DNA from: Escherichia coli O157:H7
GTDB taxonomy: Bacteria > Pseudomonadota > Gammaproteobacteria > Enterobacterales > Enterobacteriaceae
NCBI RefSeq assembly: GCF_013167455.1
Contig: NZ_CP038328.1
Reading direction: 5' to 3' (one strand)
DNA: 64,000 nucleotides
In this document: positions 36,001 to 39,000 of the stretch, one piece after another
Layout: the number at the start of each line of letters is the position of its first letter
Numbering within the stretch: position 1 is the stretch's first letter
Position numbers: made by a program

Positions 36001-39000
36001 CAGCGCAGCCGGATTATCACCGTACACGTCCCGAAGACGCTGCGCTTCAGACTCCCGCTGCGCCTGACGGTCAGTGAGACCGCGGGCTTTTGCGCTGATG
36101 GCGGCCTGCTTCGCGCTCTGCTGCTCTTCAAACCGCACCGCCTGCTGTGCCAGCTCATTCAGGCGTTTCTGGTATTCAACCTTGTCGCCCAGCTCAGCCA
36201 GCTGGCGTTTGTACTCCAGCGTCTCGTCTTTATGCGCCAGCAGGGATTTTTCCTGCTCAGATAACTGCCGTTTCGTGGCAGCCTCTTTCAGGACCGCATA
36301 CTGATTTTCCGCTTTCCATAAATCGCGACGCTGCTGGCTGATTTTCTCATTCGCACCGCTGTGTTTTTCCAGCGTCCTGAGCTCGGTTTCAAGCGCCAGC
36401 AGGGCAGCATGCGCCTGGTCTTCCTGACGCTCACCGGCTGACACTTTGACTCCTGACGACTTCGGCTTTTTCAGCGTCGATTCATAATCCTTTTTCGCCG
36501 CCGCCATCAGCGTGTTGTAATCCGCCCGCAGGATTTTCCCGTCTTTCAGGGCCTTATTCAGTTCTTCCTGACGGGCGGTATATTTCTCCAGCGGCGTCAG
36601 CAGACGCTCATACGCCTTCTGCGCCTCTCCGGTATACTTCAGCTGTGATGCGTCCCGTTCGGCCCGGTCCCTGGCGGCCAGTTCACCGGCTTTTTCCATA
36701 TCCGACTGCAGCGTGGCCGCTGCCAGCCCCAGACGGGCATTTTCCCGGTCATTCCATGCGCCCTGAAGGTTGGCCCGGAAAGAGGCGGTTTTTCCCCGGC
36801 GCTGGCTCCGGCTCTGGTACCACTGCCATTTTTTATCCGCCTCATCAAATGCCTTCTGTGCACTGGCGAGCATATCCGCTGAGGACTCAGGACGACCGAT
36901 ATCCAGAATGGCATCCCACATCGATTTGAATGCCTTCCCGGTTTTATCCGCCCAGGTCTCCAGTGTCCCCATGTTTTCTTTCAGGCGACGGGTCTGCTCA
37001 TCAAAGCCTTTCGTGGCGATATCGTTCGCCGCCTGTAAGGCCCCGGCCTCATCACCGGAACGCTGCAGCTGCGCAACATACGCAATCTGCTCTGCCGTCA
37101 CGTTACGGAACTGGCGCACCATCGCAATCAGCCCCGACGTAGGGTCGGTGGTCAGTTTTCCGAAAGCCTCTGCAACCTTGTCCACCTCCACACCGGATGC
37201 AGAAGCAAAACGCGCGACACTCTGGTTGATGGCATCAAACTGTTCACCACCACGCACACCGGCATTCACCAGGGCTGCCAGTGACTCTCTCGCCTGGTTA
37301 AACGTCAGCCCTGCTGCCTGCCCGGCTCTTGAGAGCGTCAGCATGCGATCGGCAGTCAGTCCGGACTGATTACCGGAAAGAACCAGGGTTTTATTAAACG
37401 CTGAAAGCGTGGAATCTCCCTGGTACCAGGCGTACACCAGCGCACCTGTCGCCACCGCCAGCGAGGTGACCCCGACCATCGGCAGGGTGATCGCACCGGC
37501 AAGCCCCCTGAACATGGGGATCATCCCGCCGAAGGAGTCCTTCACCTGACCGCCCTGTTGCAGCAGGATCAGCCAGGGATTCTGACCACCGGCAAGCTGC
37601 GTGGCGATATCCGTAAACTGTGCGGGCAGGGTTCGCATGGCCGCTTTATACTGCCCGACGGAAATCCCGGCTTTTTGTGCAGCCAGCGCCTGGCGGCTCA
37701 GGCCCTGTTCAACAGCACTGGCGGTTTTTCTGACGTCGGTATCCAGACCTGAAAAATGACGCCTTACCCGGCTCATCTGCTCATCGAAACGGACAGCATC
37801 CAGACTCAGGTCAATAACAAGATCACCAACCGGCTGGGACATATCTCACACCTCCCGGAATCCCCGCTGAAGCCATCATTAATGCGGCATCATCCACCAT
37901 GACATCCGCCACATCCGCAGACGATAAAATATCGCGCCCTCCGTCCCCACCGAACCGGACGCCTCCGGCAAGTCCTGCCGCTTTCTGCATCAGCATTTTG
38001 TCCTCATCCGGCCTCTCCACCTGCTCTTCCTCATGCCGGGGGACAAGCAGACTGAAATCAGAGGGATGCATATCCGGATCGCAAAAAAACAGGCTGAGTA
38101 CAGCGTACGTCAGCCCGGAAAAATGCATATCCAGCTGGGTATCCTGAAAATAATGCGTGCGGTAAAAACGGTGCCAGTCGGCATATTCGGTGGATGTCAT
38201 CCCGGCAAGCATGGCGCGCCAGTCGGGTCTCCCCATCTCACGCGCCAGTCTGAGGGCAAAGTTCAGCTCGCCGTCGAAGACTTTCCCGCAGAAAAATCAT
38301 CATCAGTCAGCGTGTTATTTTTCGCCACTTCAGTAATATCAGTATCCGGACGAACAGCCCCGCTCATCCCGGACAGGCACAACACCACGTCTTCCGCCCG
38401 GGCAATGGCATCGGCAGGCCAGGTGGTGAGCACTTCCTGCTCTATCTTCATCACGGCCTCATTCATTGACGGTGACTGCGTTTTCTGTGGATGGTTATGC
38501 CACAGGGACATCGCCACCAGAAACGCGCCGGTTCTGACGAGATCTTCCACGCTTACCTGCAGGTTGCCGCTGGATTCTGCCTGTTCTGCACGCCGTTTCA
38601 GGAGGGCAAGATGCTCGATACGCTGCAGCGCAGACAATTCGGAAAGCGTGACAGACACACCGTTATATTCAAATTGTTCTGTTTTCAGAAACATGTATGA
38701 CCTCCGTTTACCCTGCAGCGCCCGCTTCAGTAACGGTGACTTCAGCCACTGCGGCGAACTGACCATTTCCGCTCACCACAGGGATCTGCACCTTACCTGT
38801 CGCCACGCCGTTTACCGTAATTGTCATATCTTTCACACTAATGGTGGCTTTCGACGGATCGGCGGAAACCGCTCTGAACGTCTTGTCTGTTGCACTTTCC
38901 GGCTCAAAAGAAACCGTCAGGGTGGTTGTTTTCCCTTTTGCCACCGTACCGGATGTCGGCGTCACCTTAATCGCACTGACCGGCGTAATTTTGCTGCGTT

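Follow-up and report, generated by a model that had tools for sequence, protein, structure and literature searches.

A lambda-type G/GT frameshift cassette stranded, and very probably preserved neutrally, in the defective prophage Sp4 of Escherichia coli O157:H7

The stretch of DNA analyzed here, 64,000 nucleotides of the Escherichia coli O157:H7 chromosome (contig NZ_CP038328.1 of assembly GCF_013167455.1; hereafter the window), contains the lambda-like prophage Sp4, in which two overlapping tail genes, G and T, are joined by a slippery heptamer of the kind that directs programmed −1 ribosomal frameshifting. We are highly confident that this locus belongs, as an ordinary case, to the lambda G/GT family of tail-assembly-chaperone cassettes, intact in sequence, stranded in a disabled prophage and preserved there neutrally. 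The identity of the cassette is already known, and its survival in Sp4 needs no special explanation. As a recoding event the G/GT frameshift is textbook material, the defects of Sp4 were catalogued in 2009, and the find matters little in itself; a recoding signal still intact in a prophage disabled only recently carries no information on selection. An initial annotation of the window had located the heptamer and recognized the lambda G/GT frameshift, rightly in both cases, and had proposed from an apparently intact tail module beside a broken head module that the prophage was decaying unevenly or was under selection for tail-related functions. That proposal is not supported: the tail module is itself broken, the ratio of non-synonymous to synonymous divergence (dN/dS) shows no contrast between tail and head, and tail genes have decayed in sister copies of the prophage.

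The heptamer, GGGAAAG, lies in the zero frame of a 143-codon open reading frame (ORF) that begins downstream of a GGAGG ribosome-binding site (Table 1). Between it and the TGA of this ORF stand five sense codons (15 nt); the distance of 18 nt first reported is obtained only if the stop codon is counted in full. The ORF matches Phage_TAC_2 (PF06894, lambda gpG; 7e-51, profile positions 1–118 of 126), and its product is 68% identical in amino acids to lambda G and 96.5% identical to G of PhiR12_2_star by tblastn. The −1 frame is open, as the initial annotation stated, for 154 codons from the heptamer to a stop at 37825..37823; it matches Phage_tail_T (PF06223, 3.9e-14) and is 73% identical to lambda gpT in a tblastn alignment that starts from lambda T residue 1 at position 38281. 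The predicted GT fusion, computed from the coordinates as 38694..38281 plus 38281..37823, is 290 aa long. The overlapping G and T stand between the genes for the major tail protein (V, here a remnant denoted V′) and the tape-measure protein (H), and the T reading frame overlaps the start of H by 20 nt. The whole G–T segment is an exact match to ECs_1112/ECs_1113 of strain Sakai, G being identical to ECs_1112. Position, homology to gpG and gpT, a heptamer in the zero frame and conservation of the arrangement thus all agree with a lambda-type cassette.

The heptamer sequence alone is not over-represented in the window, occurring 12 times against 8.7 expected (at least 12 copies were found in 18 of 100 shuffles), as one would anticipate if its presence in G were a coincidence unrelated to recoding. 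However, just one of the 12 copies has the full configuration of a long upstream ORF (162 codons), a stop five codons on and a long −1 ORF. Among 82 close relatives (80 IMG/VR loci, PhiR12_2_star and lambda), which comprise 43 distinct G–T sequences, G GGA AAG is found 15 nt before the G stop without exception, with motif, frame and spacing invariant and a −1 ORF of 146–154 codons. Six distant homologues, whose G proteins share 28–49% amino acid identity with that of Sp4, have A AAA AAG or G GAA AAG in the corresponding position, and all six combine this shifty site with an open, T-like −1 frame of 114–154 codons; the site lies 15 nt from the G stop in four of them and 3 nt and 0 nt from it in the other two. 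The unique configuration and its conservation in close and distant relatives refute a chance origin, to which we assign virtually no probability. Homologues of the G–T segment are widespread, occurring in 3647 of 5426 complete E. coli genomes (two thirds), with five to seven copies in the O157 strains listed.

Our account of how the cassette would operate in Sp4 is taken from work on lambda by homology. In lambda, low-level slippage gives G and GT in a ratio of about 30:1. The G part binds to H, the tape-measure protein, and the T part to V, the major tail protein, whose polymerization it starts; the virion contains neither gpG nor gpGT (Atkins et al. 2016, PMC5009743, which cites Levin, Hendrix & Casjens 1993 and Xu, Hendrix & Duda 2004, 2013 and 2014 for the −1 frameshift). 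The lambda GGGAAAG retains the zero frame in about 96% of passages, with thiolation, a modification of tRNA-Lys(UUU), tuning the slip (Maynard et al. 2012, PMC3296357). By the same scheme, the majority of ribosomes translating the Sp4 message would end at the TGA of G and release gpG, and a few percent, on reaching G GGA AAG, would move back by one base as tRNA-Gly and tRNA-Lys re-pair to GGG AAA. These ribosomes would read on in the −1 frame through T, and their product would be a gpGT fusion about 290 aa long. Its G part would bind the tape-measure protein H and its T part would recruit the tube protein V. With H intact but V startless and U and Z missing, such a role in tail assembly is doubtful at the Sp4 locus.

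RefSeq draws the locus without a frameshift, as a G gene followed by an independently initiated 137-aa "tail assembly protein T" that starts at an ATG at 38236. Such an in-frame ATG is indeed present, and both the PGAP and the Sakai annotations give G and T as separate coding sequences (CDSs). Homology to lambda T nevertheless begins at the heptamer, 15 codons upstream of this ATG, and the T segment of lambda is described only within the frameshift fusion gpGT (PMC5009743). Moreover, in five of the six distant relatives the codon at the position of the ATG encodes Phe (within LAREFGRPDW), whereas the shifty site and the open −1 frame are present in all six. The lack of conservation of the ATG argues against independent initiation of T, which we consider very improbable.

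Folding combined with a seven-sequence covariation alignment yielded no supported downstream stimulatory RNA structure for G/GT. A GC-rich hairpin (GGCGCG...CGCGCC) at 38247..38212 on the minus strand, 33 nt 3′ of the heptamer, folds with z = −3.56; we rejected it as a stimulatory structure on the grounds that its covariation term is about 0, that pairs are broken in the alignment and that the conserved LAREMGRPDWRAML motif of T lies in the same place. Also set aside was a 444-codon antisense ORF (38033..39367, plus strand) across T, G and V, which has no Pfam match and is fragmented in lambda and PhiR12_2_star; it results from antisense reading in codon alignment and is not a gene.

Among known systems, the lambda cassette shares with that of Sp4 the G GGA AAG heptamer, the 15-nt spacing, the TGA stop, a place between V and H and the overlap of T with the start of H. 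The Sp4 cassette differs in having a G of 143 rather than 140 aa, a T segment longer by eight codons and no tube protein on which to act, since Z, U and the start of V have been lost from the prophage. Phages of the N15, HK225 and mEp213 type have homologous G (28–49%) and T genes, a T ORF in the −1 frame and, close to the G stop, a shifty site whose last four bases are A AAG; where Sp4 has G GGA AAG, their site reads G GAA AAG or A AAA AAG. The orfA-orfB pair of IS3-family insertion sequences (IS629/IS1203) resembles the cassette in using a programmed −1 slip in E. coli to make a fusion protein; its proteins are unrelated, and it relies on a downstream ALIL pseudoknot (Rfam RF01497). The window holds an IS629/IS1203 copy with an internal deletion of about 229 bp in which this pseudoknot is retained, and thus a second, unrelated recoding signal of the IS3-family −1 type.

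The surrounding prophage can be identified with Sp4. The window is O157:H7 chromosome with 99.9% identity to strain 17B6-2 and is collinear with the Sakai feature "prophage Sp4, lambda-like phage" at 99.56% over 39.6 kb. Insertion next to serT and hyaA, the disruption of nu1 by ISEc8, a sodC gene between I and J, the remnants of tccP2 and espV, and collinearity with Sakai all agree with this identity. We take Sp4 to be the prophage called CP-933M in EDL933. Gene completeness was assessed by tblastn with lambda and PhiR12_2_star proteins, and the description of the head and packaging modules as broken holds: nu1 is split by ISEc8, the large terminase gene A is frameshifted, the head decoration gene D contains a stop codon, the major capsid gene E is cut, and FI and FII are absent from the window in this search. 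W, B and C are full length and intact. These lesions match the published defect list for Sp4, which scores the portal, minor tail and host specificity genes as present and the head, major tail and DNA packaging (nu1::ISEc8) genes as defective (Asadulghani et al. 2009, PMC2669165, Table 1). Two of them are missing from Sakai Sp4. The D lesion is a C-to-T change at 40077 that converts CAG to TAG at codon 9 and is found only in the window and strain 17B6-2. The A lesion lies in a poly-G run that has 11 residues in the window, with a frameshift, versus nine in Sakai Sp4, Sakai Sp14 and ATCC 43890, where A is intact; the run is either a hypermutable tract or a hotspot of assembly error. Its length in other strains is off by one to three bases.

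The tail module is likewise broken. At a single junction a deletion has removed the rest of E together with FI, FII, Z and U (about 2.5 kb in PhiR12_2_star coordinates), leaving E cut after about codon 86–94 and stripping V of its first five codons, its ATG and its ribosome-binding site, out of frame with the E remnant (E′). Z and U are absent from the window by the same tblastn search. The 51-nt junction is identical in all 11 Sp4 and Sp14 loci checked, and a 300-nt junction query matched, with coverage of 80% or more, in 299 of 5426 complete E. coli genomes, the full-length rows sampled being of the O157:H7 type. With Z, U and the start of V lost to the deletion, the Sp4 locus alone cannot give rise to a tail or tailocin. 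The initial annotation, which called the module from G through stf intact, was right in that all of these ORFs are open in the window; the loss of Z and U and of the V start had escaped it. G, T, H, M, L, K, I and J align over their full length to lambda and PhiR12_2_star and lom does so to lambda, while stf aligns to lambda over its N-terminal 247 residues only and over its full length to O157 copies. The PGAP annotation assigns the dead V an ATT start at 39448 and likewise shortens D to a CDS with an ATT start that hides the TAG; with V and D rescued in this way and G and T given as separate genes, the tail module in RefSeq may look complete to readers. Directly past the junction, a synonymous GGT-to-GGA change at 39425..39430 creates the sequence AAGGAG. 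GGA occurs in the three junction-bearing IMG/VR copies; among 70 other copies examined, none of which bears the junction, 69 have GGT and one has GGG. AAGGAG might serve V′ as a new ribosome-binding site, but no ATG, GTG or TTG stands at a usable distance and the change is one among several lineage-specific differences; it is probably a hitch-hiking substitution.

An argument for neutral preservation comes from a second defective prophage of the same genomes, Sp14 (CP-933U type; ECs_2728/ECs_2727 in Sakai), of which we compared the copies in Sakai, ATCC 35150, strain 115 and LSU61. A 7746-bp block running from the C-terminal part of nu1 to the T stop is 99.82–99.96% identical between Sp4 and Sp14 (1–12 mismatches). 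The E′–V′ junction is shared and G–T is nucleotide-identical in Sakai, ATCC 35150 and strain 115, while the two prophages lie about 1.5 Mb apart (Sakai coordinates) within single genomes (Sakai and ATCC 35150). The common junction and near-identical block imply a duplication or gene conversion between two defective prophages. The two prophages also differ: in Sp14 nu1 and A are intact, the lysis cassette is un-inverted, J is broken in all four copies and H is broken in Sakai, and Sp14 carries tccP and espJ where Sp4 carries tccP2 and espV. The loci of LSU61 and strain 115 were at one point candidates for an ancestral Sp4 and were discarded as such, their flanks (tccP, espJ) and the Sakai annotation showing them to be Sp14. 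G–T is 100% identical in 11 of 12 other Sp4 and Sp14 copies, that of LSU61 having two mismatches in T; G is identical at 432 of 432 positions in nine loci and has 143 codons in 11 of 11. At a divergence of 0.013–0.15%, by our own arithmetic, about 0.001–0.011 changes would be expected in a 7-nt motif, and survival of the heptamer is the neutral expectation. With 1–12 substitutions in 7.7 kb, too little time has passed since the deletion for the persistence of the motif to be informative about selection.

Nor do the remaining tail genes point to selection at Sp4. The initial annotation had named frameshifts or stops in tail genes as evidence that would count against its proposal, and such lesions do occur in other Sp4 and Sp14 copies, the window copy being open from G to stf: of the 437 stf codons, Sp4 of ATCC 43890 retains 308 and Sp4 of PV15-279 retains 236, J is cut to 232 of 1157 codons in Sp4 of PV15-279 and truncated in all four Sp14 copies, and H is cut to 620 of 859 codons in Sakai Sp14. 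In total, stf or J is truncated in two of seven other Sp4 copies. Some frameshifts in these other assemblies could be sequencing errors; the Sp14 defects in J and H have been published independently (PMC2669165). The dN/dS comparison recommended at the outset, made here against lambda and PhiR12_2_star, revealed no contrast between tail and head: values were 0.07–0.32 for tail genes other than T, 0.21 (lambda) and 0.67 (PhiR12_2_star) for T, 0.08–0.29 for the head genes B, C and W, and 0.13–0.17 for the V remnant, so that the ranges for tail, head and dead gene overlap. Because the divergence predates inactivation, these values are uninformative on selection in Sp4; they record the history of the phage lineage and not the time since inactivation. 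The region from H through M, L, K, I, J and lom to stf (26266..37842) shows patchy divergence of 0–9% between O157 strains at the same locus, a mosaic that suggests, as its best explanation, recombination with other lambdoid tail modules of the genome. Recombination can import intact alleles, and intact genes from H to stf therefore need not reflect selection at Sp4.

Several points limit our account or weigh against it. In the window copy the head and packaging genes have four to five lesions in about 9 kb, against none in the 12.4 kb from G to stf, a clustering that looks uneven under a uniform Poisson model, with small numbers; the frameshift efficiency and function that we ascribe to Sp4 are carried over from lambda; recombination from H to stf is read from mosaic divergence; and packaged Sp4 DNA has been detected after induction (Asadulghani et al., PMC2669165). 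The clustering is tempered by the heterogeneity of the lesions, which comprise one deletion, one insertion sequence, one hypermutable poly-G and one point mutation, by the absence of the A and D lesions from Sakai Sp4 and by the opposite pattern in other strains. A direct way for selection to act would be through a tail-like particle, that is, a lambda-type tailocin resembling F-type pyocins, for whose sake G to stf would be kept. Flexible lambda-like tailocins exist in other bacteria; Sp4 has their lambda-like order from G to J and the fibre genes, all of these ORFs are open in the window, and lysis genes are present, though inverted. A tailocin nevertheless needs a complete, translatable tail set including tube and terminator, and in Sp4 the tube gene V has neither start codon nor ribosome-binding site, the terminator gene U and Z are deleted, and remnants of head genes are still present. 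The published scoring of the major tail genes of Sp4 as defective (PMC2669165), the position of the twin block in Sp14 beside a J broken in all four copies and an H broken in Sakai, the truncations of stf or J in other Sp4 copies, and tail dN/dS values no different from those of head genes or the dead V remnant also stand against it, and we regard a tailocin as highly improbable.

Selection might instead operate on the pool of prophages, with G/GT, H and the tip proteins of Sp4 used in trans to complete the particles of other defective O157 prophages or of helper-packaged Sp4 DNA. Sp4 DNA is packaged after mitomycin C treatment although the prophage lacks its own terminase and head (PMC2669165), which means that complementation between prophages occurs, and O157 genomes contain five to seven related G–T cassettes. 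Yet Sp8, Sp10 and Sp11, whose morphogenesis genes are complete, carry copies of their own that make those of Sp4 redundant (PMC2669165), no transfer of Sp4 was observed (PMC2669165, Table 2), J, H or stf has been lost in sister copies, and G–T, having zero variation, carries no readable signal of purifying selection. We consider such use in trans, including that of some Sp4 tail proteins in mixed particles, unlikely. A more elaborate version, in which gene conversion actively homogenizes the Sp4/Sp14 block and the pair forms a split, helper-dependent unit, Sp14 contributing terminase, Sp4 the tape measure, tip and fibres, and a third prophage V, U, Z and the head, so that H to stf of Sp4 would be retained, seems to us slightly more doubtful still.

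Table 1. Coordinates of the cassette, the prophage modules around it and other features of the window (positions count from the first nucleotide of the window, except in the row for L100 and L101, which uses the coordinates of those loci).
Feature	Coordinates	Strand	Remarks
Slippery heptamer GGGAAAG, read G GGA AAG (X XXY YYZ)	38287..38281	minus	zero frame of gene G
Gene G, gpG homologue (tail assembly chaperone), 143 aa	38694..38263	minus	ATG 38694, TGA 38265..38263
T segment, −1 frame	37823..38281	minus	base 38281 read twice
V′ (major tail/tube protein)	38708..39445	minus	tblastn residues 6–251; Phage_TTP_12 from profile position 14
Deletion junction, E (~codon 86) to V codon 6	39446/39445		out of frame; imperfect microhomology ACACGAAT / ACACCAAAT
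E′ (5′ remnant of major capsid gene), 88-codon ORF	39430..39696	minus	Phage_cap_E profile positions 1–80 of 329; tblastn residues 1–94
Head and packaging block	39754..48269	minus	tblastn, annotation, Pfam
D (head decoration)	40101..39754	minus	full length but TAG at 40077..40075
A (large terminase)	45342..43412	minus	frameshifted at poly-G ~45082..45072
nu1, C-terminal part	45568..45314	minus	
ISEc8 in nu1	48006..45569		8-bp target duplication
nu1, N-terminal part	48269..47997	minus	split by ISEc8
H (tape-measure protein, 859 aa)	35263..37842	minus	full length
M (tail-tip assembly)	35266..34937	minus	full length
L (tail-tip assembly)	34937..34239	minus	full length
K (tail-tip assembly)	34228..33485	minus	full length
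I (tail-tip assembly)	33488..32907	minus	full length
J	32055..28582	minus	open in window copy
lom	28514..27915	minus	open in window copy
stf N-terminal-domain fibre gene	27850..26537	minus	open in window copy
Fibre C-terminal-domain ORF	26535..26266	minus	open in window copy
Block shared with Sp14, nu1 C-terminal part to T stop	37823..45568		7746 bp
Counterpart of this block in compared loci L100, L101	20631..28374		
tRNA-Ser(TGA), serT	24418..24505		prophage adjoins serT and hyaA
Type III effector remnants	24601..26141		by serT
sodC	32189..32716	plus	between I and J
Lysis cassette	48722..52193		inverted
IS629/IS1203 copy	52187..53265		internal deletion
ALIL pseudoknot (RF01497)	52814..52930		in the IS629/IS1203 copy
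tRNA-to-sok features	55460..55976 and 60701..60875		downstream of Q
gnsA region, chromosomal flank	4658..5592		

Other features of the window bear on the prophage more loosely. Compared with both the late operon and the Sp14 arrangement, the lysis cassette lies inverted; it comprises a holin, a lysozyme and an Rz-like gene, a regulator of the PerC family that is called pchA in Sakai, and a ylcI fragment. The inversion directly adjoins the IS629 copy, and about 108 bp are missing at one of its breakpoints. The sodC gene, encoding a Cu/Zn superoxide dismutase (Pfam Sod_Cu, 3.9e-32), is a moron on the strand opposite to the tail genes and is missing from the corresponding position in Sp4 of PV15-279 and in Sp14. 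Of the type III effector genes, espV is left as a fragment, and tccP2, which has internal repeats, is frameshifted; the annotations of strains 2159 and PV15-279 give tccP2 as intact. Downstream of Q lie three tRNA genes (anticodons CAT, TCG and TCT), a match to the small RNA STnc100 and a nanS-p-type SASA esterase gene, and further on a hokD/sok toxin-antitoxin locus (Rfam sok, 105.6 bits). Within the chromosomal flank, the annotation of strain 17B6-2, which is near-identical, marks gnsA as frameshifted, and a match to the cspA-type thermoregulator (RF01766, 150.9 bits) covers the leader of cspG.

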